Source of the DNA: Mycoplasmatota bacterium
GTDB lineage: Bacteria; Bacillota_I; Bacilli_A; RF39; UBA660
Direction: 5' to 3'
Assembly: GCA_022763805.1 (NCBI GenBank)
Contig: JALERC010000085.1
Coordinates: 1-48,380, forward strand
DNA length: 48,380 nt
Shown here: positions 14,720 to 26,417 of the stretch, one piece after another
How positions within the stretch are numbered: position 1 is the first letter of the stretch
How the letters are laid out: the number at the start of each line of letters is the position of its first letter
Program-made: the position numbers and the translations under genes
Notes under the pieces: generated by a model
The model's input: the letters and a program-made list of their open reading frames with translations, nothing else
Told to the model about the DNA's origin: nothing
Database searches by the model: none

Positions 14720-16948
14720 GTGAATGTAATGGATAAATATATTAAAGGAGTATACAAAAAAGAAATATTTTCAACTGATAAAGGATTTATTATAGGTCTT
14801 TTTAGAATAAAAGATACTAATGATGAATCAATGAAAGATTATGTCAATAAAACAGTTACATTCACAGGGAACCTACCTAAATTAAATTTTGATGAAACAT
14901 ATTTATTTTATGGTAATCCAGTAAAACATCCTAGATTTGGTTTTCAATATGAAGTTTCAAAATGTGAAAGAATTAAACCAGAAGATAAAGACGGGGTAAT
15001 TGAATTTTTGTCAAGTGATTTATTTCCAGGTGTTGGACAGAAGATCGCCACATCAATTGTTGAAACACTAGGTATTAATGCCTTAGAACTTATTATGAGT
15101 GATTATACTGTATTATTAAATGTACCTAAACTGACAAGTAAAAAAGCTGCTAAAATATATGATAATTTAATTAAATATGAAGAAAGTCATAATATAATTG
15201 TCTATTTATCAGAATTAGGTTTTGCAATAAAAGATTGTATGCTGATTTATAATAAATATAAATCTAAAACTAAAAATGTTATAGAAGAAAATATATATAA
15301 ATTAATTGATGATATAGATGAGTTATCATTTAGTAAAGTTGATGAAGTAGCACTTAAATATGGTATTAATCCTATGGATGAATATAGAATTAAAGCTGTT
15401 ATTATATATATTATGAACAAACTTACATATAATAATGGTGATACATATTTAGAGTTAATAAATATTATTAAAGAAACAGAAAAATTTTTAAAAACGAGTT
15501 TAAATAGTGATTATTTTGATCAATATATGTATGATTTAGAAAAAGAAGGAAAAATAATAAAATACAATAATGTTTATTATTTAAGTGATATATTTGTTGC
15601 TGAAAATTATGTTGCTAAAAAAATAATTAATTTAGCATCTTTAGATAGAATTAAATATCCGAAAATGGATAACTATTTAGAACATTTACAAAAAATTTCT
15701 GGAATTAAATATAATAAACAACAATTAGAAGCAATTCAAAAATCATTAGAAAACCATATTTTAATTATTACTGGAGGACCAGGAACAGGAAAAACTACTA
15801 TTATAAAAGCAATTGTTGAAATGTATTCGCAATTACATAACATGAATTATGGGAAAGTAACTGAGGCCATAAAACTTTTAGCACCTACAGGAAGAGCATC
15901 AAAACGTATGAGCGAATCAACAGGTCTTCCAGCATCAACAATACATAGATTTTTAAAATGGAATAAAGAAACAAATAAATTTGCTGTAGATGAAGAAAAT
16001 AAAGATCAATCAAAATTATTTATTGTTGATGAAGCTAGTATGATAGATATAAAACTTTTAGAAAGTTTATTTAGAGGAATAGAAGATGATATTCAGTTTA
16101 TATTTGTTGGGGATTATCACCAACTTCCAAGTGTAGGTCCAGGTCAAGTTTTAAAAGATTTAATAAATAGTAATATAATAGACACAGTATTTTTAAATCA
16201 CTTATATAGACAGGATGAAGATTCCTATATAAATAAACTCGCATTAGAAATAAAAGATAATTGCTTATCAGAAAATTTTATGGATGCAAAAAGTGATTTT
16301 CAATTTTTACCTTGTAATGGAATAAGCATCAAAGAAAATCTTAAAAAATTATGTGTTCAAGTTAAAAATAAAGGATATGATTATAAAAGATTACAGATTA
16401 TGGCACCAATGTATAGAGGTGAAAATGGAATAGATAATTTAAATATAGAATTACAATCTGTTTTTAATCCGCCTTCAAAACTAAAAAAAGAAATCAAATA
16501 TGGAGATGTTACATATAGAGTTGGAGATAAAGTTTTACAACTTGTAAATCAACCAGATGATAATATATTTAATGGCGATATTGGAATCATACAAAAAATA
16601 ATTGATTCGAATAAATCTGAAAGCGGAAAAAATGAAATAGTAATTAATTATGATGATAATGAGGTAACATTTACACAAACAGACTTTAATAAGTTTAAAC
16701 ATGCATATATTATAAGTATTCATAAATCGCAAGGTAGTGAATTTGAATTAGTAATACTTCCAATATGTTCATCATATAAAAGAATGTTATATAGAAAACT
16801 ATTATATACTGCCGTAACACGAGCTAAAAGGAAACTGATTGTAATTGGTGAACCACCTGCATTTATAAGTTGTGTAGATAATAATAATGAATATATAAGA
16901 AATACATCTTTGGTTGAAAAAATAAATGAAATCATAAATAATAATTAA
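14720..16948 (+). CDS. recD2: RecD2-like ATP-dependent DNA helicase
   Basis: HPRFGFQ, HhH-like FPGVGQKIA, TGGPGTGKTT, LAPTGRASK, DEASM, GDYHQLPSVG, SIHKSQGSEF and YTAVTRAK. Start may be ATG 14729. Confidence 0.95.
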   Translation: MNVMDKYIKGVYKKEIFSTDKGFIIGLFRIKDTNDESMKDYVNKTVTFTGNLPKLNFDETYLFYGNPVKHPRFGFQYEVSKCERIKPEDKDGVIEFLSSDLFPGVGQKIATSIVETLGINALELIMSDYTVLLNVPKLTSKKAAKIYDNLIKYEESHNIIVYLSELGFAIKDCMLIYNKYKSKTKNVIEENIYKLIDDIDELSFSKVDEVALKYGINPMDEYRIKAVIIYIMNKLTYNNGDTYLELINIIKETEKFLKTSLNSDYFDQYMYDLEKEGKIIKYNNVYYLSDIFVAENYVAKKIINLASLDRIKYPKMDNYLEHLQKISGIKYNKQQLEAIQKSLENHILIITGGPGTGKTTIIKAIVEMYSQLHNMNYGKVTEAIKLLAPTGRASKRMSESTGLPASTIHRFLKWNKETNKFAVDEENKDQSKLFIVDEASMIDIKLLESLFRGIEDDIQFIFVGDYHQLPSVGPGQVLKDLINSNIIDTVFLNHLYRQDEDSYINKLALEIKDNCLSENFMDAKSDFQFLPCNGISIKENLKKLCVQVKNKGYDYKRLQIMAPMYRGENGIDNLNIELQSVFNPPSKLKKEIKYGDVTYRVGDKVLQLVNQPDDNIFNGDIGIIQKIIDSNKSESGKNEIVINYDDNEVTFTQTDFNKFKHAYIISIHKSQGSEFELVILPICSSYKRMLYRKLLYTAVTRAKRKLIVIGEPPAFISCVDNNNEYIRNTSLVEKINEIINNN

Positions 16949-17013
16949 ATTATTCTTTTAAAATGTATAATTACTTAAATATTGTTAAAAATATCTAACA
17001 TAGAGGTGATTAT

Positions 17014-17172
17014 ATGAGAGCATTAAAAGATGCAATGTTCATTTCTTTAGGTGTAGTAGGCACACTAGCATATCAAAAATACGGATGTAAAATGAAAGAT
17101 GTAATGGAAGATATGTTAGAAAATAAAATAGATATGCTTAAAAAAATGGACGATAAATTAGAAGAGATGTAA
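17014..17172 (+). CDS. 52-aa small membrane-anchored protein (loosely YtxH-like), absent from ORF track
   Basis: RBS GAGGTG then ATG. MRALKDAMFISLGVVGTLAYQKYGCKMKDVMEDMLENKIDMLKKMDDKLEEM*. Followed by its own terminator. Confidence 0.8.
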   Translation: MRALKDAMFISLGVVGTLAYQKYGCKMKDVMEDMLENKIDMLKKMDDKLEEM

Positions 17173-17173
17173 G

Positions 17174-17200
17174 AAAAGAACAAAAAAGTTCTTTTTTTTT
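17174..17200 (+). terminator. Intrinsic terminator
   Basis: AAAAGAAC-AAAAAA-GTTCTTTT plus T run. Confidence 0.7.
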
Positions 17201-17259
17201 CATAATTAAAAGGAAATAGTGTACTTCACATCGTAAGATATAAGTGAGGAGGTGAGAGA

Positions 17260-19305
17260 GTGAGAAAAAAATATCCCTTTACAAAACAAGAAGGACTTAA
17301 AGATTGTGCAGCAGCATGTATGCAAATGATCATAAAATATTACAATGGATATATAAGTATTAACGACTTAAATGAAATGCTAGAAACTACAAAAGAAGGA
17401 GTTAGTGCTTTTAAAATAATTGAAGTATCAAATAAAATCGGTTTTAAAGCAACAGGAATTAGACTAAATCTTTTAGAATTAACTAAATCAGTTACACTTC
17501 CAGTAATAGCTCATGTTGTAATAAATAATTATAATCATTATATAGTAGTATACAAAATTGATTCATTTAAAAAATCAGTCATAATTGCTGATCCCCAATC
17601 GAAAATAAAAACAATAAGCTTTAAAGAATTTGAATCAATTTGGACTAATGTAATAATTAACTTGTATCCAGTAAAGCCAATAGAACATAGAAATTACGAA
17701 AAACATTTAAATTACAAAAATATAATCCTTAAAAACAAAAAAACAATATTTCAATTATGTTATATCAGTTTTATATATATGATTCTATCTATTGTTGCTT
17801 CTTTCTATATGAAATATGTTTTTGACAATTATTTATCAAATTTTCACTTAATTTTTACAGTTTTTATCCTATTCATAATTATCAATTTATATAAAATATT
17901 TACAAACCTTATTCGGACTAAAATATTAATTGATTTAAACAAAAACATAGACATAGATTTAAGTTTAGATATTTTTTCAAAAATTCTATCACTTCCGTAT
18001 GGTTATTACCGAAATAAAACTACCGGTGAAATTATTACACGTTATACTGAACTTAGCAAAATAAGAGAAACTATAAGTAAAGTTTTATTAACATTATTCT
18101 TAGATTTACCATTATGTATTACATCACTAATAATTATGTATTTTTTAAATAGTAAATTAACTATGATATCATTAATAGCAGTATTATTATATACAATTAT
18201 AGTAATAGTATATAATAGAATTTTAAATGACACTATTTTAGAAGCACAAATAAAAAAAGCTGAAATGAATACTGTATTAATAGAAAGTATTAATGGTTTT
18301 GAAACAATAAAAGGTTTAAATTTATATGATTATATAAACCTAAAATTCGAAAACAAATATATTAAATATCTTAAAAATGTTATTAAAATTGATAGTATAT
18401 TAAATATAAAAGAGAACTTAAAAGAAATAGTAAATCAACTAATAGAAATGATAATTATATTTACAGGTGTAATATATGTAAGAAGTGAAACAATAACAAT
18501 TGGTACATTAATGACATACAACTCAATCTTAGTATTTTTTCTAGCCCCTATAAGAAATTTATTAAGTTTGGATAACTCAATAATTGAATCAAAAAGAATA
18601 GTAAAAAGAGTAAATGAAATGTTAAAAAAAGAAGAAAATGTAAAAAAAATAAACATTGTTTATAGTGATATTCTTATAAAGAGTCTAAGTTTTAAGCAAA
18701 ATGAAAAAATAATATTAAACAAAATAAACTTACATATTAGTAAAGGTGAAAAAGTAATAATAACCGGTAAATCAGGAAGTGGTAAATCAACCCTTTTAAA
18801 AATACTAATGAATTATTATAATGACTATCAAGGTGAAATAAAAATAAATGGAATAAATATCAAATCCATTAATTTAAAAAATGTATATATATCGCAAAAT
18901 GAAACCCTTTTCACAGATACAATTTATAATAATATAGTATTAGGTAATAACGATTCTAATTTTTCAGAAGTAGTTAAAATGTGTTATGTAGATGAAATAA
19001 TAAATTCAAATCTAGGATATAATCAAATTATAGAAGAAAATGGATTTAATATCTCTGGAGGACAAAAACAGAGAATTATACTTGCTAGATCAATTATTAA
19101 TGAATTTGATTTATTATTAATTGATGAAGGTTTAAATCAAATTGATGTAGAATTAGAAAGAAAAATTTTAAAAAATTTATTTAATAAATTCCATGACAAA
19201 ACAATAATTATAGTATCCCACAGACTTGAAAATATGGATTTATATGATAAATTAATAAAACTAGAAAATGGAAAAGTAAAAGAGTGTGTTAAAAGAAATG
19301 ATTAA
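17260..19305 (+). CDS. Peptidase C39-containing ABC transporter (PCAT; double-glycine peptide maturation and export)
   Basis: C39 domain QEGLKDCAAAC...NHYIVV...ADP, TM domain, Walker A GKSGSGKST, ISGGQKQ, LIDE and VSHR. GGAGGTG RBS, GTG start. Confidence 0.95.
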   Translation: MRKKYPFTKQEGLKDCAAACMQMIIKYYNGYISINDLNEMLETTKEGVSAFKIIEVSNKIGFKATGIRLNLLELTKSVTLPVIAHVVINNYNHYIVVYKIDSFKKSVIIADPQSKIKTISFKEFESIWTNVIINLYPVKPIEHRNYEKHLNYKNIILKNKKTIFQLCYISFIYMILSIVASFYMKYVFDNYLSNFHLIFTVFILFIIINLYKIFTNLIRTKILIDLNKNIDIDLSLDIFSKILSLPYGYYRNKTTGEIITRYTELSKIRETISKVLLTLFLDLPLCITSLIIMYFLNSKLTMISLIAVLLYTIIVIVYNRILNDTILEAQIKKAEMNTVLIESINGFETIKGLNLYDYINLKFENKYIKYLKNVIKIDSILNIKENLKEIVNQLIEMIIIFTGVIYVRSETITIGTLMTYNSILVFFLAPIRNLLSLDNSIIESKRIVKRVNEMLKKEENVKKINIVYSDILIKSLSFKQNEKIILNKINLHISKGEKVIITGKSGSGKSTLLKILMNYYNDYQGEIKINGINIKSINLKNVYISQNETLFTDTIYNNIVLGNNDSNFSEVVKMCYVDEIINSNLGYNQIIEENGFNISGGQKQRIILARSIINEFDLLLIDEGLNQIDVELERKILKNLFNKFHDKTIIIVSHRLENMDLYDKLIKLENGKVKECVKRND

Positions 19306-19699
19306 CTATGATATTTTTAATAATACAAAAGAAGCAGTAAATAAATCTATTAATCTTAAATGTTTTCATCTAATATCAACAATTATTTTTGTAATAATAT
19401 TTCTAGTTATAGTAAAATTTAAAATTTATGTATCTAACGTTTTCCTTCATGAAACAAAAAAAGATGAAGACATATATCTAATACTTGATAATGAATTTAG
19501 AAACATTTATGTAAATGATATTAATTATAATGATAAAATTAGAAAACATACTAGTAGCAAAAATAAATATTACGTGACAATTTTTAATAACGGATTTGAA
19601 GATAATGAAAGAATAAAAATAAAAATAGAAGAAGAAACAACGATTATGAAATATTTAATTAATTATGTAAGAAAGGATCTGTTTAATGAAAGAACTTAA
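19286..19699 (+). CDS. Small single-TM accessory protein of the peptide exporter (miniature HlyD/ComB-like)
   Basis: Overlaps the PCAT stop. One TM helix. C-terminal IKIKIEEETTIMKYLINYV resembles membrane-fusion protein ends. Start may be ATG 19298. Confidence 0.55.
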   Translation: MLKEMINYDIFNNTKEAVNKSINLKCFHLISTIIFVIIFLVIVKFKIYVSNVFLHETKKDEDIYLILDNEFRNIYVNDINYNDKIRKHTSSKNKYYVTIFNNGFEDNERIKIKIEEETTIMKYLINYVRKDLFNERT

Positions 19700-19820
19700 T
19701 AAAAATGAATTAAAACAAGTAGTCGGAGGCGGGGCTGGCACTATATTAATAATTATTGCAGGAGTAGTATTTTTAATAGGTGTGATAGATGGTTATATGA
19801 GACCGCTTCCATGTAATTAA
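19686..19820 (+). CDS. Double-glycine leader peptide 1 (bacteriocin-like, class IIb candidate)
   Basis: MKELNKNELKQVVGG|GAGTILIIIAGVVFLIGVIDGYMRPLPCN*, 44 aa. RBS AAAGGA, canonical L-x3-EL-x2-V-x-GG leader, GxxxG motif. Confidence 0.9.
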   Translation: MKELNKNELKQVVGGGAGTILIIIAGVVFLIGVIDGYMRPLPCN

Positions 19821-19830
19821 GGAGGTATAT

Positions 19831-19995
19831 ATGAAATTAACAAACAAAGAATTAAAAAATATCAATGGCGGAGCAGCAGTATCTGGTTCTGTAATATCAG
19901 GTGTTGTAAGAGGAGTAAATACATTCCTAGACTTAGGTCGTGCACTTGGTTCTAGTTTAAGAAGACTTGGTAATGGATCTATATGTCCAATATAA
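19831..19995 (+). CDS. Double-glycine leader peptide 2 (bacteriocin-like, class IIb candidate)
   Basis: MKLTNKELKNINGG|AAVSGSVISGVVRGVNTFLDLGRALGSSLRRLGNGSICPI*, 54 aa. RBS AAGGAGG; GxxxG motifs GVVRG and GRALG. Confidence 0.9.
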   Translation: MKLTNKELKNINGGAAVSGSVISGVVRGVNTFLDLGRALGSSLRRLGNGSICPI

Positions 19996-20153
19996 AATCA
20001 ATACTTAAAGAGAACTATAAAAATATTATTATTGTTGCAGGTACTGTCATTATGCTACCAGTGATATCATTAATAACAGAAATTATATATCACTACGGAA
20101 CATATGTAGGAACATTTATAAGAAATATAGTTGAAAATGGAGCTTGTTTTTAG
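19983..20153 (+). CDS. 56-aa leaderless membrane peptide resembling the C-terminus of peptide 2 (candidate immunity protein)
   Basis: MSNIKSILKENYKNIIIVAGTVIMLPVISLITEIIYHYGTYVGTFIRNIVENGACF*. Overlaps the peptide 2 stop; weak GGA RBS. Three of four differences from its repeat copy are synonymous, which supports coding. Confidence 0.75.
   Translation: MSNIKSILKENYKNIIIVAGTVIMLPVISLITEIIYHYGTYVGTFIRNIVENGACF
20052..20153 (+). repeat. 102-bp direct repeat, copy 1 (3' part of the 56-aa gene)
   Basis: Matches 23896-23997 at 98/102 positions by manual comparison. Confidence 0.95.
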
Positions 20154-20189
20154 AAAATATAATTATAGAAATTAAGCGTCCGAAATGAT

Positions 20190-20268
20190 AAAAAAAGACA
20201 CATAAAATTACCTATAATAAAATGTAAGTGAATAAGCTTATATTGAAGGTAAAAATATGTGTTTTTTT
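20190..20268 (+). other. Long multi-stem hairpin enclosing TATAAT and sequestering an AAGGT..ATG
   Basis: Nested inverted repeats AAAAAAGACACATA/TATGTGTTTTTTT, TTACCT/AGGTAA and AATGTAAG/CTTATATT. Confidence 0.6.
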
Positions 20269-20337
20269 GATTACATACACAAACTACTAACTGTAATAAA
20301 ACTTGATGACATTTATTATTCTTATTTTGTAAATAGA

Positions 20338-20366
20338 TATACATTTATATATATTTATGATAAAAT
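20338..20366 (+). promoter_or_regulatory. Putative SigA promoter of the cassette operon
   Basis: TATACA (20338-43), 17 bp, TAAAAT (20361-66) with extended -10 TG. Confidence 0.45.
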
Positions 20367-20424
20367 TAAGATGAAGAATAGAACATTTTCAGGTAATAAG
20401 GAAAATATAATAGGAAGTAATAAT

Positions 20425-20813
20425 ATGAAACTAATTAAAATAATTTCTATAGTATTTATAATAAGTATTGTTTTTGTAATTTCATCTGCAAAAGCAGATA
20501 ATTATGTTGGATTTAATAATATAACTATTCCTGCAATTGGTGGTTCATACAAATCTACACAATATAGAAAGTATAATCAAACACAACAAATAATAGAGAC
20601 TACTTCGATATCAACTTCAATGAAAGCGAGAACTCAAGCAATGCTTGGTCAAGTTGATATTCATCATATATTAATTTAATTAATGGAGGATCACAAACAT
20701 GGGGTTCAGAAAATATAGATTTAAATGAGTATAAATTACATATTAAATGTACTAGTACCAATATATTAAATGAGAGTTACTGGGGCATTTGGAAATACGA
20801 CTGGCCTGTATAA
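20425..20813 (+). pseudogene. Frameshifted small Sec-secreted protein (about 129 aa restored; Lcn972/DUF2712-like cassette precursor by context)
   Basis: Signal peptide MKLIKIISIVFIISIVFVISSAKA|D. The frame stops at 20679, but a shifted frame open from 20658 continues YSSYINLINGGSQTWGSEN...YWGIWKYDWPV* to 20813. Confidence 0.7.
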
Positions 20814-20856
20814 ATAAAATAATATATTTTTCTTTTACTATTTTGGAGGTATTTTA

Positions 20857-21762
20857 ATGAAATATAATAGAAATAACGCTGTGTTAATGCTAGTAATAAT
20901 GGTTATTGTTGGATTCTCTTTAAGCGCTATATTTAACAACATGCGCGAATTTAATATGAATATCAAAGCATATAATTATAAGATAAATAAATGTAATACA
21001 ATATCTGATAATGATACTACAATAATTAATTATTGTAATGAAATAAAAAAATGGGGTGGTCCAAAAAGATCTGATACCTTTTTTACTTTTTTCGACATAT
21101 TATTTGATGATAGATTTACTATTATGCAAATTTTATTACCATTTTTAATTATTATGTGTTCAATATCCAAAATCAATGAAAAATTAAAAAGTGGGTTTAT
21201 TAAAAATGAACTTTTAAGACAAAAATATAAAAGTTTTGTTATAAAAGAATGGATAGACTCATTAAAAAAATTATTTATAATACCGTTTATGTTTTTAATA
21301 ATTGCAGTTGCTGCATATATACTAACTGGTAACTTTGATTATAAGAATTCCTTATTAAATTTTAATCCATGGGTCAATCCTATATTTTTTGATAATATTG
21401 TAATTTCAATAATTATATATTTAACTAATTTTTTATTACATGGCATTTTTATTATAAATATTGGATATATTGCTACAAAAAAAAGTAGAGGTTATATTCT
21501 TTCGGTTTTGACTGCATATATTTCTTATTTAGGATTATGGGCTATATCTGAAACATTTTTTGGTTATTTTATAATGAGCGGTTTGTTAAAAAAACCTGAA
21601 TTACATAATTATTTTTCTTTTACAACTTTATGGGGATATCCGGATATAAATAATTTTGTCTTGTTTACTTTATATCAAGCAATTATTACTATTATTTCTT
21701 GCATATGTTTTTATTTATCATACAGGAATAAAGAGGGGGTATTAATAGCTAATGAACAATAG
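20857..21762 (+). CDS. ABC-2-type permease-like membrane protein 1
   Basis: About 6 TM helices, N-terminal extracellular loop, KSGFIKNELLRQKY motif. GGAGG RBS; first of the coupled permease genes. Confidence 0.75.
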   Translation: MKYNRNNAVLMLVIMVIVGFSLSAIFNNMREFNMNIKAYNYKINKCNTISDNDTTIINYCNEIKKWGGPKRSDTFFTFFDILFDDRFTIMQILLPFLIIMCSISKINEKLKSGFIKNELLRQKYKSFVIKEWIDSLKKLFIIPFMFLIIAVAAYILTGNFDYKNSLLNFNPWVNPIFFDNIVISIIIYLTNFLLHGIFIINIGYIATKKSRGYILSVLTAYISYLGLWAISETFFGYFIMSGLLKKPELHNYFSFTTLWGYPDINNFVLFTLYQAIITIISCICFYLSYRNKEGVLIANEQ

Positions 21763-22498
21763 ATTTAAAATAAATTTTATAAAAACAGTTGTATCTTCTA
21801 ATAAATTTATGACCTCATTACTTCTTTTAATAATATTAAATTTTTTTATTGTAGGAAAATATGCTGCTAACTTAGAATATATTACAGCTTTTATTAATAT
21901 TAATAACTTATTTGTATATAATACTTTTCTAGCAATAATTATCTTATTTACAACATTAAATACATTAAAAATATTTGAAACATATACTAATATTATAATA
22001 CGGTATAATAATAAAAAAATGTATATTTTTGAGTTAATAAAAATTACTCTCATCTTAAATTTAATTATTGTACTTATTAGTTATATGCTACTATTTACTG
22101 GATTAAATTTTTATGCTAATGCACCTTTAATTATTAATAATGGAAAACTTGGAATTTCTAATTTAATTTATGCTTGTTATGTTTTTATAAAAAAAATTAT
22201 ATTGTTTGAAATCTTATCTATAATATTTTTGCTTATTAACAAAAATTTCAATAAAAATATTTCACTAATTATTTCATTTGTCATCATTTCCATGTTACTT
22301 GTAGCTACTTATAATGATATATATATTAATTCTTTTAGAGAGTTTCAGTTTTTCTTATGGGATTATTTTGTCTATCATCGATATGCATCTATAGCATTAG
22401 AAATTTCATTTTTTAGTATTTTTGCTTGTTGTAATATTTTATTATTATATTTATTTACAATAATTACGATAAAAAGAATTAAAAATATAGGTGATTAA
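21752..22498 (+). CDS. ABC-2-type permease-like membrane protein 2
   Basis: About 6 TM helices, NIIIRYNNKK motif; overlaps both neighbours. Confidence 0.7.
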   Translation: MNNRFKINFIKTVVSSNKFMTSLLLLIILNFFIVGKYAANLEYITAFININNLFVYNTFLAIIILFTTLNTLKIFETYTNIIIRYNNKKMYIFELIKITLILNLIIVLISYMLLFTGLNFYANAPLIINNGKLGISNLIYACYVFIKKIILFEILSIIFLLINKNFNKNISLIISFVIISMLLVATYNDIYINSFREFQFFLWDYFVYHRYASIALEISFFSIFACCNILLLYLFTIITIKRIKNIGD

Positions 22499-23135
22499 AA
22501 TGAAATATATTTTAAAAAATGATTTTAATACGTTAAAGAAATTCTTACAATTATCAATTATATTTTACTTTTTACCATTACTAACTTTTATTATGATGAT
22601 AAAAGTAACAGGCTCTAATATTACAAGTTTAATGAATGAAAATTTTTTTTCATATAACATTAAATTTAATTATTCGAATTGGGTATTAATAATAATTTCA
22701 ATAATTAACACTGTTATATACATTTCAATGTCTTATTCGCTTATAGTAAAAGATGTGCATTATGAAAAAGAAAATATATTTTTAAGAATTAATATAAGAA
22801 GATGGCTGATATATAAGACTTTATCATTAATAATTTATATTCTTATTTATACATGTATTAGAATATTTATAATTTTCTGTGCTATTGGTTGTAACAGTTT
22901 AAATATATATATATTGCTTTATCAGTTTTTGTATTATTTACTATTGTCGAATTTGTTAATAATAGTATACATTTTATTTTCAAAAAAAGAAATCATGTTT
23001 TGTTTAGTTTTCATTCTATCTATAATACTAAATTTATCTGGTTTAATATTAGCTATGTGTAATGTAATTACTGAAATATTTATATTATTTTTATTAGAGA
23101 AAAAAAGAACAAAAATTTTTGAAAGGAGTTTATAA
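22491..23135 (+). CDS. ABC-2-type permease-like membrane protein 3
   Basis: Multi-TM, ENIFLRINIRRW motif; start may be ATG 22500. Confidence 0.7.
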   Translation: MIKMKYILKNDFNTLKKFLQLSIIFYFLPLLTFIMMIKVTGSNITSLMNENFFSYNIKFNYSNWVLIIISIINTVIYISMSYSLIVKDVHYEKENIFLRINIRRWLIYKTLSLIIYILIYTCIRIFIIFCAIGCNSLNIYILLYQFLYYLLLSNLLIIVYILFSKKEIMFCLVFILSIILNLSGLILAMCNVITEIFILFLLEKKRTKIFERSL

Positions 23136-23137
23136 TT

Positions 23138-23776
23138 ATGAGAATAGACGTAAAAAATTTATCGAAAGAATTTAATGGCATTAAAGTATTAGACAATGTA
23201 AATTTACAATTTGAAGAAGGAAAAATATATGGATTAATAGGAAGAAACGGTAGTGGAAAAAGTGTATTTTTAAAAATACTTTGTAATTTCTATGCCCCAA
23301 CCTCTGGAGAGGTTTTATTTGATAATATTAATATATATAAAGAAAATATATTTCCACCTGAAACTAGAGCACTTATAGAAAAGCCTTCTTTTTTGCCAGA
23401 TACAACAGGATTTGACAATTTAAAATTATTAGCTTCTATTCAAAATAGAATAAGTGATGAGGAAATTTTAAATACACTTAAAAAATTAAATCTTATTGAG
23501 GATAAAGATAAAAAATATAAAAATTATTCTTTAGGTATGAAGCAAAAACTTGGTATTGCTCAAGTTTTAATGGAAAATCCTAAGATAATAATTTTAGATG
23601 AACCTTTTAATGGGATCGAGAATGCGACTGCGAAAAAAGTTAGGGATATATTGAAAAGTGAGGCTAAATCAGGAAAAATTGTAATTTTAGCATCACATAT
23701 AAAAGAAGATATTGAAGAATTAGCAGATGTAGTATATAAATTTGATTGTGGGAAAACATCAATTATAAAAAAATAA
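23138..23776 (+). CDS. ABC transporter ATP-binding protein
   Basis: GRNGSGKS, YSLGMKQKLGIAQ, ILDEP and ASH. Confidence 0.95.
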   Translation: MRIDVKNLSKEFNGIKVLDNVNLQFEEGKIYGLIGRNGSGKSVFLKILCNFYAPTSGEVLFDNINIYKENIFPPETRALIEKPSFLPDTTGFDNLKLLASIQNRISDEEILNTLKKLNLIEDKDKKYKNYSLGMKQKLGIAQVLMENPKIIILDEPFNGIENATAKKVRDILKSEAKSGKIVILASHIKEDIEELADVVYKFDCGKTSIIKK

Positions 23777-23858
23777 TAGTTAAGTTATATTGTAAATATT
23801 TAAAATTTTTGGTATATATTATTAATGAAATTATTATAGATTAAAATAATTTTTATAT

Positions 23859-23997
23859 ATAATTAAGCAAAATTATAAAAATATTTTATGTTATAATGCT
23901 TCCAGTGATATCATTAGTAACAGAAATTATATATCACTACGGAACATATGTAGGAACATTTATAAGAAATATAGTCGAAAATGGAGCTTGCTTTTAG
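23859..23997 (+). pseudogene. Decayed second copy of the 56-aa gene (contains direct repeat copy 2, 23896-23997)
   Basis: ATA ATT AAG CAA AAT TAT AAA AAT ATT (IIKQNYKNI) matches ILKENYKNI. A frameshifting deletion follows, then MLPVISLVTEIIYHYGTYVGTFIRNIVENGACF*. Confidence 0.8.
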
Positions 23998-24013
23998 CAA
24001 GTTCTTTTTTTTT
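23983..24013 (+). terminator. Intrinsic terminator after repeat copy 2
   Basis: GGAGCTTGCT-TTT-AGCAAGTTCT plus T run; the second arm is absent after copy 1. Confidence 0.8.
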
Positions 24014-24065
24014 GTATGTAAAACGTAAATTATATGATATAATTGTATTATGATAGAATAGTAGT

Positions 24066-26417
24066 GTGATAAATATGTATTTTCATTTTAAGAAAAAAGA
24101 AATTATAAAAAGAAAAAAAAAGCATTATAGTGATGTAGTTGGTGATTTGATAACTCTTTCAATAATTGTTAATGATAGCATTAGAAATTATGTATTAAAT
24201 GATTTTACAAAAGAAAGAATATCATTCGGTCGTGGAGAATATAACGATATTATTATAAAATCACCTATAATGTCTAAATACCATGGATACTTTGAAATAA
24301 AAGGTTCAAAAGTTTATATCCATGATGATCAAAGTAAAAATGGTATTATTGTAAATAATAAAAAAATGATTAATGCAGAAATTACCGATGGTGATTTTAT
24401 AAGAATAGATGATGAAAATGAACATTTAAATGATGGGATATTAATCATTGTTAAATATGGTAAAAGTCCATATAAATGGAATAGATATCATATAAATAAT
24501 AAAAATTTAATAACAATAGGTAATGTAGTAAATAATGATGTAATTATTGACTATAACGTAAATAGTCAGTGGAATGTAAGACTTACAAAAAAAGATAAAG
24601 AAAATAGTTATACAATTGAACCATGTTTTAATAAAAGTGTATTTTTAAATGGTAATGAAGTTAAAAAGCCTACTTTGTTAAAAAATAATGATTTAATAAA
24701 TATTGACAGTTATAAAATAATCTATACTTATAATAACATTTTTTTCCATACACATGAATTAGGAGTAAGAATAGATGCTAGAGATATAACTAAAGTTGTT
24801 AAAGTTAGAGGTAAGAAAAAAATTATATCAAACGATATTAATATGACTATTAAACCCGGTGAATTTGTAGCATTTGTAGGTGGTTCTGGGACAGGAAAAA
24901 CAACATTTATGTCTTTTATAAGTGGTATGAAAAAACCTACTAAAGGTACAGTCTTACTTGATGGTAAAGATTTATTCAAAAATTATAATTCACTTAAAAA
25001 AGTAATAGCATATGTACCACAAAATGATATAGTTTATACAGATTTAACACTAATTGATATGCTAAGATATTCGGCTAATTTACGAATGGATAGCTATTCA
25101 AATCAAGATGAAAAAGAAAGAAGAATACAAGATGTATTAGAAATAGTGGATTTAGTTGGAAAGGAAAATGTTCTTATTAAAAGATTATCTGGAGGTCAAC
25201 GAAAAAGGGCAGGTATTGCTGTAGAATTACTAGATAATCCAAAATTATTTTTCTTAGATGAACCGACAAGTGGACTTGATCCAGGAACTGAAAGAAGTCT
25301 AATGAAAACGTTAAGAAAGATGTCTGATATGGGACAAACAACAGTTCTTGTAACACATAATACTCAGAATATTCATCTTTGTGATAAAGTTGTCTTTTTT
25401 GGAAATGGCGGTAAAATTTGTTATGATGGACCACCAGTTGGAGCTAAAGAGTTTTTCGGTGTTGATGATTTTGTAGATATTTATAATCTTATTGATGCTG
25501 ATACAGATTTTTGGAATAAAAAATATAAAAAAGAATCAAATATTGAAAAAATCACAAGTGAAAATGAAGAAACGAATAAAACAAAGAAAACAAAAAATTC
25601 TTTTATTGATCAATTTATAACTTTAACTAAAAGATATATTAAAACAATAATAAACAATAAAATACAATTACTACTATTATTATTACAAGCTCCAATAATT
25701 GCTGAAGCATTATCGTTAGTTATAAATAATGACTTATTTACATACTACGATATGACAAAATCAATTTTATTTATTATTGCTATTGCAGGTATATACATAG
25801 GACTTGGAAATAGTATACAAGAAATATGTAAAGAAAAAATAATATTAAAAAAAGAATATATGGCTGATTTGCGATTAAGTGCATATATATTATCAAAAAT
25901 TTTAGTAATGTTTATTTTGGCGATAATTCAGTCATCATTATTTATATTTACATTAAAATTAACGATTGATGTTCCAACAGATGGAGTTATGTACAGTTGG
26001 ACAATTGAAATGTGGATTATAATGATTCTTACAATATTTTCATCATCAACGATGGGATTATTAGTATCATCATTAGCACAAGATGCATCAACAGCTATGA
26101 CATATATTCCAATTTTACTTGTTCCACAAATGTTATTTTGCGGAATGCTATTTGAACTAAAAGGAATAATATCAATAATTTCCAATTTTATTTTGTGCAG
26201 GTGGACATTAGAACTTTTAGGAACAACAAATGATATGAATAGTTTAATCGTAGGTATTCAAGATATTATACCTGGATATCAAAGAGAATCTGAAACATTT
26301 TTTGAATTTACAAAAATACATTTTTGTAAAGGTTCATTAGTAATTGTATTTATGAGTATAATCATGATACTAATTTGTTATTTAATACTTAAAAAACAAT
26401 TGGAGGATAAGTCATGA
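24066..26417 (+). CDS. FHA-FHA-ABC ATPase-ABC2 permease fusion (Rv1747-like architecture)
   Basis: FHA1 FGR...SKYH...SKNG, degenerate FHA2, GGSGTGKTT, LSGGQRKR, FLDEPTSGLD and six C-terminal TMs. Start may be ATG 24075. Confidence 0.92.
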   Translation: MINMYFHFKKKEIIKRKKKHYSDVVGDLITLSIIVNDSIRNYVLNDFTKERISFGRGEYNDIIIKSPIMSKYHGYFEIKGSKVYIHDDQSKNGIIVNNKKMINAEITDGDFIRIDDENEHLNDGILIIVKYGKSPYKWNRYHINNKNLITIGNVVNNDVIIDYNVNSQWNVRLTKKDKENSYTIEPCFNKSVFLNGNEVKKPTLLKNNDLINIDSYKIIYTYNNIFFHTHELGVRIDARDITKVVKVRGKKKIISNDINMTIKPGEFVAFVGGSGTGKTTFMSFISGMKKPTKGTVLLDGKDLFKNYNSLKKVIAYVPQNDIVYTDLTLIDMLRYSANLRMDSYSNQDEKERRIQDVLEIVDLVGKENVLIKRLSGGQRKRAGIAVELLDNPKLFFLDEPTSGLDPGTERSLMKTLRKMSDMGQTTVLVTHNTQNIHLCDKVVFFGNGGKICYDGPPVGAKEFFGVDDFVDIYNLIDADTDFWNKKYKKESNIEKITSENEETNKTKKTKNSFIDQFITLTKRYIKTIINNKIQLLLLLLQAPIIAEALSLVINNDLFTYYDMTKSILFIIAIAGIYIGLGNSIQEICKEKIILKKEYMADLRLSAYILSKILVMFILAIIQSSLFIFTLKLTIDVPTDGVMYSWTIEMWIIMILTIFSSSTMGLLVSSLAQDASTAMTYIPILLVPQMLFCGMLFELKGIISIISNFILCRWTLELLGTTNDMNSLIVGIQDIIPGYQRESETFFEFTKIHFCKGSLVIVFMSIIMILICYLILKKQLEDKS

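Follow-up and report, generated by a model that had tools for sequence, protein, structure and literature searches.

Analysis of a 48,380-nt stretch of DNA from a Mycoplasmatota bacterium (contig JALERC010000085.1 of assembly GCA_022763805.1; hereafter the window) identified a small, conserved, predicted membrane protein of 56 aa (ORF3), encoded directly after two GG-leader, bacteriocin-like peptides. At the family level, ORF3 is an anchored relative of the second of these, peptide 2. The gene overlaps the end of peptide 2 by 13 nt, in a five-gene locus comprising a C39-ABC exporter, an accessory protein, peptide 1, peptide 2 and ORF3. This relationship suggests a simple and testable way in which the cell may neutralise its own peptides. 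The features, all on the forward strand, were as follows.

17260..19305 (+), peptide cleavage/export ABC transporter of 681 aa with C39 peptidase, ABC membrane and ATPase domains (Pfam PF03412 117.9 bits, PF00664 119.3, PF00005 88.2; TIGR01193 404.6 bits, below its cut-off of 523.85)
19286..19699 (+), accessory protein of 137 aa with one N-terminal hydrophobic stretch and no Pfam or NCBIfam hit of note
19686..19820 (+), peptide 1, GG-leader precursor of 44 aa; the mature 29 aa are very hydrophobic (hydropathy 2.70), with invariant G32, G36 (GxxxG) and C43 in an alignment of 74 sequences
19831..19995 (+), peptide 2, GG-leader precursor of 54 aa; the mature 40 aa are cationic (+3), with invariant G36, G40, R44 and C52
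19900..19992 (+), the part of peptide 2 (residues 24-54) that aligns to ORF3
19983..20153 (+), ORF3, 56 aa; the start ATG lies inside the I-C-P codons of peptide 2
19983..20024 (+), ORF3 residues 1-14, basic N-terminus, predicted cytoplasmic
20025..20093 (+), ORF3 residues 15-37, predicted transmembrane helix with a conserved Pro (P26), nearly invariant in the ORF3 alignment
20061..20150 (+), ORF3 residues 27-56, the peptide-2-like segment with G39, G43, T44, R47 and C55, predicted to lie at or outside the outer membrane face
23859..23997 (+), second, 5'-degraded copy of ORF3, with a 14-nt deletion and no in-frame start for the N-terminus; its last 99 nt differ from the first copy at 4 positions
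23983..24015 (+), terminator-like hairpin plus T-run at the end of the second copy; no such hairpin follows the first copy

Both peptides passed the NCBIfam class IIb cut-off (TIGR03949, 22.9 bits for peptide 1 and 23.5 for peptide 2, cut-off 21.5), and TIGR01847 scored 21.2 and 17.0, respectively (cut-off 15.7). An ORF of 109-161 aa was present at the position of the accessory gene in 11 of the 13 related loci inspected by eye; of the other two, one (L006) has an unrelated 227-aa ORF there and the listing of the other (L010) begins inside the exporter. The second copy of ORF3 was also recovered with the ORF3 profile in the source genome. Pfam and NCBIfam have no family for ORF3, the accessory protein, the three membrane proteins of the downstream cassette, or the two pieces of the secreted ORF, and Rfam found nothing in 16900-24300.

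The preliminary description had reported that the C-terminal half of ORF3 aligns without gaps to peptide 2, and this observation is confirmed. ORF3 residues 34-55 and peptide 2 residues 31-52 align over 22 positions with 4/22 identities and a BLOSUM62 sum of 19, and both fit G-x3-G-[ST]-x-[IL]-R-x7-C. As stated there, ORF3 has no GG leader; no NCBIfam leader hit was obtained. However, the pairwise resemblance alone is not above chance and on its own would have dismissed the finding. BLASTP gave an E-value of 0.26, and 2000 shuffles gave p = 0.285 (ungapped) and 0.14 (gapped) for the full proteins, and about 0.06 for the C-terminal part only. ORF3 against peptide 1 scored 37 pairwise, with a shuffle p of 0.008, but the profile comparisons below did not confirm this, and we read it as a shared hydrophobic stretch and not a relationship.

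To address whether the resemblance holds between families, profiles of both were compared with hhalign. A first comparison (15 ORF3 against 13 peptide 2 sequences) gave a probability of 88% and an E-value of 2.9e-6. With 68 against 91 sequences, the probability was 94.4% and the E-value 8.6e-8, with a score of 36.4 over 31 ungapped columns beginning at ORF3 residue 27. Reversed peptide 2 scored 12.2; 300 column shuffles of peptide 2 had a mean of 8.4 (sd 1.9, maximum 18.3), and 300 shuffles of ORF3 had a maximum of 18.5. ORF3 against peptide 1 gave a probability of 0.3%. The ORF3 HMM found 71/91 peptide 2 sequences at E<=0.01, 0/90 peptide 1 sequences and 4/4200 other ORFs of the same loci, while the peptide 2 HMM found 21/67 ORF3 sequences at E<=0.01 and 0/4200 others at E<=0.1. 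In the source genome, ORF3 was the best hit of the peptide 2 HMM without a GG leader (rank 3 of 14,935 ORFs), although with the ORF3 HMM alone the peptide 2 of the window ranked only 6th (E 0.15).

The ORF3 sequences were chosen by position only and not by motif, from 91 loci. These 91 were obtained by merging loci fetched twice for one genome by identical sequence and removing two ORF3 sequences that had fitted the peptide 2 pattern (loci L018 and L067), with 100 rows reduced to 93 and then to 91. Five fetched loci (L073, L081, L087, L100 and L105) did not fit that pattern and were left out; all five have peptides 1 and 2, and three have ORF3. ORF3 directly follows and overlaps peptide 2 in 69/91 loci from many genera, with an overlap of 13 nt in 44, 16 nt in 14 and 7 nt in 6 of the 69. 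GxxxG was present in 69/69 and GxxxGxxxR in 65/69. Conservation of the motif residues in orthologues had been named beforehand as a test, and it is passed for the G, G and R residues, which were also conserved in 147/149 database representatives. Both families share G-x3-G-[ST]-x2-R. The Cys is only partly conserved in ORF3: in peptide 2 it lies at R+8 in 91/91, whereas in ORF3 it lies at R+8 in 31/65 loci and 68/147 representatives, and is absent in 22/65 and 34/147, respectively. Where ORF3 has a Cys after the motif, it is mostly at the same R+8 spacing (31 of 43 loci and 68 of 113 representatives). By our reading of the position-by-position profile, about 15 of 21 aligned positions share their commonest residue class, including [ST] at +5, R at +8, E at +12 and Cys at +16.

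ORF3 is under purifying selection, with a dN/dS of 0.12-0.72 in 11 pairs. A search among 1.84 billion protein representatives returned 275 clusters of relatives at 50% identity; the 150 listed were 38-96 aa long (mostly 48-63), and 149 of these were analysed for the motif (P0001 was left out). Among the 13 listed 56-aa within-species variants, all variation lies in residues 5-32, and the last 24 residues are invariant. The first 14 residues carry a net charge of +2, and the best 19-residue hydropathy window is residues 17-35 (Kyte-Doolittle mean 2.27). AF2 gave a continuous helix over residues 12-53 (mean pLDDT 83). The family mean charge is +2.6 for the first 14 residues against +1.2 from the motif to the end; the predicted orientation, N-terminus inside and C-terminus outside, rests only on the positive-inside rule.

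Contigs from RNA libraries of two studies bridge peptide 1, peptide 2 and the first ~95-105 nt of ORF3. This is a weak hint of co-transcription, as the libraries may contain DNA, and the parts of the stretch without contig cover are uninformative. Modelling of a complex between peptide 1 (residues 15-44) and ORF3, both as alignments, gave scores of 0.12 and 0.07 against a mark of 0.32 in runs without controls, and is evidence for nothing. A word-indexed protein search found only 5 relatives of ORF3 and 5 of peptide 2, with no useful names. A search for related loci in a collection of genome contigs with alignment A1 found nothing, and the top hit in a protein atlas (0.80, 'putative Bacteriocin') was under the level at which hits are meaningful. 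A sequence search of the PDB with the peptide 2 profile gave only chance-level hits, and tblastn of peptide 2 in a plasmid collection gave no match. Literature searches for a bacteriocin-like or decoy immunity protein in class IIb, limited to open-access articles, found nothing relevant.

The peptide locus is single-copy in 377/401 genomes of the family (289/298 high-quality genomes), is vertically inherited, and was not found in 24 other families of the class. This pattern is more like a core lineage trait than a typical strain-variable bacteriocin. ORF3 itself is absent from 23 of the 91 loci that keep both peptides, or about 25% of related species, from 2 of the 5 further loci, and from the one locus found in another family (f7). 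In the examples read, a hairpin-like inverted repeat with a T-run follows peptide 2 directly.

Our preferred reading, which we hold to be about as likely as not, is that ORF3 is a short single-pass immunity protein of the CbnZ/BrcI/AbpIM kind that arose from peptide 2 and acts as a tethered mimic. In this view, ORF3 is translated, co-transcribed and translationally coupled with peptide 2 of a class-IIb-like two-peptide locus, and its outer ~30 residues are an old paralogue of the C-terminal half of mature peptide 2, the leader and N-terminal half having been replaced by a membrane anchor. The segment keeps the helix face G-x3-G-[ST]-x2-R and the hydrophobic stripe of peptide 2, and in about half of the orthologues also the Cys at R+8, while the face that is small and polar in peptide 2 has become aromatic. 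As a non-functional stand-in, it would occupy the docking site of peptide 2 on peptide 1 (the conserved GxxxG plus Asp, and here also the Cys) or on the shared receptor, so that no active pair forms in the producer's own membrane. The analysis establishes the reality of the gene, its conservation, its position, its relatedness to peptide 2 and its single hydrophobic helix; the topology, the binding partner, protection and any antimicrobial activity of the peptide pair are inferred. A short helical motif could in principle also converge.

The interpretation in the preliminary description, that ORF3 is a paralogue of the toxin subunit acting as a dominant-negative decoy that captures peptide 1 through GxxxG packing and a Cys-Cys link, or else a membrane-anchored third subunit or receptor, is partly supported. 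The leaderless, single-pass architecture, the usual immunity-gene position and the specific relationship to peptide 2 all held. As the Cys is missing in about a third of ORF3 orthologues, however, a Cys-Cys capture cannot be the general mechanism, and the loci that keep both peptides without ORF3 indicate that it is not an obligatory immunity factor. Nothing in the data shows protection or binding to peptide 1, and the distribution of the locus leaves room for a role other than immunity.

The first alternative, which we consider unlikely, is that ORF3 is not an immunity factor but a membrane-anchored third component of a lineage-core two-peptide system, for example a surface tether or receptor that holds peptide 1, or a regulator of when the pair becomes active, and that the system may not be a weapon against neighbours. 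The near-universal, single-copy distribution and the absence of ORF3 from about 25% of species that keep both peptides favour this reading. In many genomes the locus sits beside housekeeping genes, which look like ribosomal protein S21 and a YqeY-like protein when the translations are read by eye. Furthermore, peptides 1 and 2 are more conserved than ORF3 (mean column identity 47% and 56% against 37%). On the other hand, the gene set is exactly the five-gene layout described for two-peptide bacteriocins (PMC6957408), both peptides pass the class IIb cut-off, and no sensor kinase or regulator was seen beside the locus in a non-systematic reading of the ORF lists.

A second alternative, similarly doubtful, is that ORF3 is the immunity protein but that its likeness to peptide 2 plays no mimicry role, being either a relic of common origin or convergence on a GxxxG helix. 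Protection would then work as proposed for other class II immunity proteins, by binding the bacteriocin-receptor complex or plugging the pore. Gene position and architecture match the CbnZ type, GxxxG motifs are common in membrane helices and in all class IIb peptides (PMC6957408, PMC8538875), and the mechanisms proposed in print for class IIb immunity are receptor-linked or proteolytic (PMC8538875). However, the shared pattern goes well beyond GxxxG, is specific to peptide 2 and not peptide 1, and coincides with the segment under the strongest constraint. That ORF3 is a chance ORF or a decaying remnant is very unlikely: it is short, without a Pfam or NCBIfam family, has no strong ribosome-binding site upstream by eye and has a truncated second copy in the window, but this reading is contradicted by its conservation at the same position across many genera with invariant G, G and R, a dN/dS below 1 in all 11 pairs, the 275 clusters of relatives and the invariant C-terminal 24 residues within the species.

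A more far-reaching version of the mimic hypothesis is not excluded, although we regard it as unlikely on present evidence. The self-protection factor of a two-peptide membrane toxin would have evolved by duplication of one toxin subunit, its export leader being swapped for a membrane anchor to give a tethered dominant-negative 'anti-bacteriocin'. The whole module would have been inherited vertically as a core trait of an entire family of small-genome gut bacteria, and so may serve a conserved physiological role rather than occasional warfare. This would be the first toxin-derived immunity described for class II bacteriocins, and a direct handle on how class IIb immunity works. The immunity mechanism for two-peptide bacteriocins 'remains a mystery' (PMC6957408), and an immunity-position protein that is recognisably a membrane-anchored relative of one toxin subunit gives a concrete hypothesis, competition for the partner's GxxxG face, that can be tested by mutation. 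The protein defines an unannotated family, and the peptide locus it follows is present in nearly every genome of a large, uncultured, small-genome bacterial family. If the mimic idea holds, it gives a design rule for neutralising two-peptide bacteriocins and an example of how immunity genes can arise from toxin genes.

Among other systems, phage holin/antiholin pairs offer a working analogy only, in that a near-copy of a membrane-active protein with an altered N-terminus pairs with the active form and blocks it; they are unrelated proteins in a different setting, and there is no evidence here that ORF3 pairs with anything. The LagC-type (four TMDs) and Abi/CAAX-type (PlnI, PlnL, SkkI) class IIb immunity proteins are likewise membrane proteins encoded with the bacteriocin genes (PMC8538875), but ORF3 has one helix, is half the size or less, has no Abi motifs or Pfam hit, and is not a member of either group. 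With the class IIb two-peptide bacteriocins (TIGR03949, lactobin A/cerein 7B family), the locus shares two adjacent GG-leader peptides with GxxxG motifs and a small downstream membrane ORF, together with a putative dedicated exporter that has the C39 and ABC domains but scores below the TIGR01193 cut-off, and a putative accessory gene without a family match. It differs in being single-copy and near-universal in a whole family, in the one invariant Cys near the C-terminus of each peptide, and in the lack of a sequence match to solved class IIb peptide structures. The closest known proteins are the short class IIb immunity proteins CbnZ (42 aa; immunity protein of carnobacteriocin XY), BrcI (53 aa), EnkIaz (52 aa) and AbpIM (55 aa). 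No likeness between these and their own bacteriocin peptides is mentioned in sections 1 and 3 of PMC6957408. CbnZ has one transmembrane domain, is encoded immediately downstream of cbnXY, has a measured N-in/C-out topology, and confers 250-fold protection (PMC6957408). ORF3 resembles it in small size, a single hydrophobic helix, gene position and, by prediction only, topology, with protection inferred by analogy, and carries an outer tail that is a relative of peptide 2.

The window is very AT-rich and comes from a 1.47-Mb, 102-contig genome. The following features lie on the + strand, in this order:

17260-19305 (+), a 681-aa exporter with C39 peptidase, ABC membrane and ATPase domains
19286-19699 (+), a 137-aa accessory ORF without a family
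19686-19820 (+), peptide 1, 44 aa (Cys codon at 19812-19814)
19831-19995 (+), peptide 2, 54 aa (Cys codon at 19984-19986)
19983-20153 (+), ORF3, 56 aa

Both peptides have double-glycine leaders and pass the NCBIfam class IIb model TIGR03949, with scores of 22.9 and 23.5 bits against a cut-off of 21.5. ORF3 starts at an ATG inside the last codons of peptide 2, giving a 13-nt overlap (19983-19995). The start codon and the first residues of ORF3 are encoded in another frame by the conserved I-C-P codons of peptide 2, and the two genes therefore constrain each other's sequence at this point. No match to ORF3 was found in Pfam or NCBIfam, and no Rfam family was identified in 16900-24300.

The preliminary description reported an ungapped alignment between the C-terminal half of ORF3 and peptide 2, and this observation held: the two segments are present in the translations at ORF3 residues 34-55 and peptide 2 residues 31-52, and align without gaps with 4 identities in 22. 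However, BLASTP gave an E value of 0.26, and 2000 shuffles gave p values of 0.285 (ungapped) and 0.14 (gapped) for the full proteins, and about 0.06 for the ORF3 tail against mature peptide 2. From this window alone, the likeness is not more than chance.

To place the pair in a wider context, a profile of the few close ORF3 homologues was searched in 61 related genomes, and small ORFs were found in many genera. The translated loci showed the same gene order of exporter, accessory, peptide 1, peptide 2 and small ORF. A peptide 2 profile then identified one copy in 377 of 401 genomes of the same family, comprising 289 of 298 high-quality genomes and 211 of 214 genera. In a sample of the class, it was found in this family (13/13) and in one other family (1/1), and was not found in 24 further families (0/136). 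In many genomes, the locus lies beside genes that resemble ribosomal protein S21 and a YqeY-like protein, as judged by eye only.

A further 60 loci were retrieved. From all of the loci, we extracted peptide 2 and whatever ORF of at least 34 aa starts within -25 to +30 nt of its stop, without using any motif for that ORF, which gave 91 distinct loci. Such an ORF was present in 69, with an overlap of -13 in 44, -16 in 14 and -7 in 6. All 69 contain GxxxG, and 65 contain GxxxGxxxR. By HMM, 67 loci have peptide 1 and ORF3, 23 have peptide 1 but no ORF3, and 1 has ORF3 with peptide 1 probably beyond the retrieved flank. Five loci that were left out by the pattern used to recognise peptide 2 also carry both peptides, and three of them carry ORF3. 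In one of these five, L087, the Arg at +8 from the first Gly of peptide 2 is replaced by His, the only such loss seen, and the corresponding Arg of its ORF3 is also lost (Gly instead). This is a single case and is anecdotal, but it is what a shared binding partner would predict.

Comparison of the two families by hhalign gave a probability of 88% and an E value of 2.9e-6 with 15 ORF3 against 13 peptide 2 sequences. With 68 ORF3 and 91 peptide 2 sequences, the probability was 94.4%, with an E value of 8.6e-8 and a score of 36.4, over 31 ungapped columns placing ORF3 27-56 on peptide 2 24-54. As controls, ORF3 against peptide 1 gave a probability of 0.3%, reversed peptide 2 scored 12.2, 300 column shuffles of peptide 2 had a mean of 8.4 (sd 1.9, max 18.3), and 300 shuffles of ORF3 had a maximum of 18.5. 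In a set of 4448 stop-to-stop ORFs from the 91 loci, the ORF3 HMM hit 49, 71 and 87 of 91 peptide 2 sequences at E<=0.001, 0.01 and 0.1, respectively, 0 of 90 peptide 1 sequences, and 4 of 4200 other ORFs at 0.01. The peptide 2 HMM hit 11, 21 and 35 of 67 ORF3 sequences, and none of 4200 others at 0.1. In the window's own genome (14,935 ORFs), the peptide 2 HMM ranked ORF3 third (E 0.029), after peptide 2 itself and peptide 1, which matches through the leader, while the ORF3 HMM ranked peptide 2 only sixth (E 0.15).

Counted from the first Gly, both families share hydrophobic residues at -4, -3, -1, +3, +7, +10 and +15, Gly at 0 and +4, Arg as the commonest residue at +1, Thr/Ser at +5, Arg at +8, frequent Glu at +12, Gly/Asn at +13 and Cys at +16. 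The families differ at +2, +6 and +9, where peptide 2 has small or basic residues and ORF3 mostly has aromatic or hydrophobic ones. By helix geometry, these three positions would fall on one face, opposite the Gly-Gly-Arg stripe. Within one locus, the two segments are on average 32% identical in protein (maximum 50%) and 47% identical in DNA, against 31% in shifted registers. The relationship is therefore old and not a recent gene conversion. The tail of ORF3 and the C-terminal half of peptide 2 are very probably paralogues; convergence on so long a pattern seems unlikely, but cannot be excluded for 30 residues. One database protein, P0156 (93 aa), is a natural fusion of the leader and first half of a peptide 2 with a complete ORF3, and another, P0004 (44 aa, from a 540-nt contig), is an ORF3 of this species whose peptide-2-like tail is deleted, although either could be an assembly error or a real variant.

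Cys is present at R+8 in 91/91 peptide 2 sequences. Among the 65 ORF3 sequences with the full motif, 31 have Cys at R+8, 5 have it at R+7 only, 7 have it elsewhere and 22 have none; among 147 database representatives with the motif, the corresponding figures were 68, 21, 24 and 34. The spacing is kept where a Cys exists, which again speaks for common origin, but a disulfide cannot be the general mechanism. Peptide 1 and peptide 2 themselves each have one invariant Cys a few residues from the C-terminus (74 and 91 sequences, respectively), which suggests a disulfide-linked pair, and no paper describing such a two-peptide bacteriocin was found in the literature searched.

Several lines of evidence indicate that ORF3 is a real protein. 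The dN/dS was 0.12-0.72 in the 11 pairs that could be computed, with one further pair saturated. A profile search of 1.84 billion representatives found 275 clusters at E<=0.001 and 33 at <=1e-10, with a length of 38-96 aa, mostly 48-63, in 150 of the 275. The 90% cluster of the window's ORF3 has 42 members seen on hundreds of contigs, and in 13 full-length variants, every change lies in residues 5-32 and the last 24 residues never change. AF2 with the 66-sequence alignment predicted one helix over residues 12-53 with a mean pLDDT of 83, and the best hydrophobic window is residues 17-35. The N-terminus is basic across the family, with a mean charge of +2.6 against +1.2 for the tail, which predicts N-in and C-out. 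Contigs from RNA libraries of two studies cover peptide 1, peptide 2 and the first ~95-105 nt of ORF3, one 586-nt contig spanning 19491-20076. As DNA can be present in such libraries, this is a weak hint of co-transcription.

A second, 5'-degraded copy of ORF3 lies downstream of the locus, and the surrounding features are:

20157-23888, a 3.7-kb cassette between the full ORF3 and the second copy
20425-20813, a small ORF with a signal-peptide-like start that runs into a stop at 20677 and continues in another frame to 20813
20857-23776, three membrane proteins (301, 248 and 214 aa) followed by an ABC ATPase
23859-23997, the 5'-degraded second copy of ORF3
23859-24015, the second copy together with a terminator-like hairpin

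Over the last 99 nt of the two copies (the 33 shared codons), there are 4 differences, 3 of them synonymous, and the terminator-like hairpin follows the second copy and not the first. The small ORF, putatively secreted, appears frameshifted, and neither piece has a Pfam match. The three membrane proteins have no Pfam or NCBIfam family. The ATPase is closest to lantibiotic-protection transporters (TIGR03740, 174.6 bits, below its cut-off of 309.75), and the three membrane proteins with the ATPase may be a second, transporter-type self-protection system next to the peptide locus. Same-genus relatives lack the cassette at this place and have other genes after ORF3. The cassette therefore looks like an insertion that duplicated the 3' end of ORF3.

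With regard to mechanism, peptide 1 carries an invariant GxxxG (G32, G36), an adjacent Asp that is mostly conserved as judged by reading the sequences, and an invariant Cys. The presence of GxxxG motifs in class IIb peptides has been described (PMC6957408). In these peptides, the motifs are thought to mediate helix-helix packing. The simplest model is that ORF3 would occupy the place of peptide 2 on peptide 1, or on the receptor that peptide 2 uses, and because ORF3 is anchored and lacks the N-terminal half of peptide 2, the complex would be inert. We consider this model about as likely as not. The reality of the gene, its conservation and position, and its relatedness to peptide 2 rest on the analyses themselves, while the topology, the binding partner and any protection are inferred, and the one complex prediction pointed in neither direction. 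The interpretation in the preliminary description, of a toxin-subunit paralogue acting as a membrane-bound decoy that captures peptide 1 through GxxxG packing and a Cys-Cys link, is partly supported, in its relationship to peptide 2 but not in a Cys-Cys link as the general mechanism.

Two features of the distribution speak against the model. About a quarter of the related species (23 of 91 loci, such as L034, L041, L045, L070 and L088) keep both peptides without ORF3, and in the examples read, a hairpin-like inverted repeat with a T-run follows directly after peptide 2. The loss seems concentrated in a subgroup whose peptide 1 ends differently, although this is an impression from reading the listed sequences. 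Furthermore, the locus is a single-copy, near-universal and apparently vertically inherited trait of a family of 0.4-1.7 Mb genomes, unlike the patchy distribution usual for bacteriocins. This keeps alive a tentative alternative in which ORF3 is a tether, receptor or regulator of a core peptide system. A second alternative, of similarly low likelihood, is that ORF3 is an immunity protein whose likeness to peptide 2 is mechanistically irrelevant. A chance or dead ORF is excluded for practical purposes.

The five-gene layout is the one described for two-peptide bacteriocins, in which the gene after the two peptide genes is normally the immunity gene (PMC6957408). Searches of the available literature for decoy, mimic or bacteriocin-homologous immunity in class IIb found nothing relevant, and in the text consulted of a 2021 review, only LagC-type, Abi-type and CbnZ-type immunity are listed (PMC8538875). 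Short immunity proteins are known, namely CbnZ (42 aa), BrcI (53 aa), EnkIaz (52 aa) and AbpIM (55 aa), and CbnZ has one TMD with a measured N-in/C-out topology and gives 250-fold protection (PMC6957408). ORF3 has this architecture, with its topology being predicted. What is new, on present evidence, is that its predicted outer tail keeps the conserved face of peptide 2, such that ORF3 would represent a short class IIb immunity-type protein that is very probably derived from a toxin subunit.
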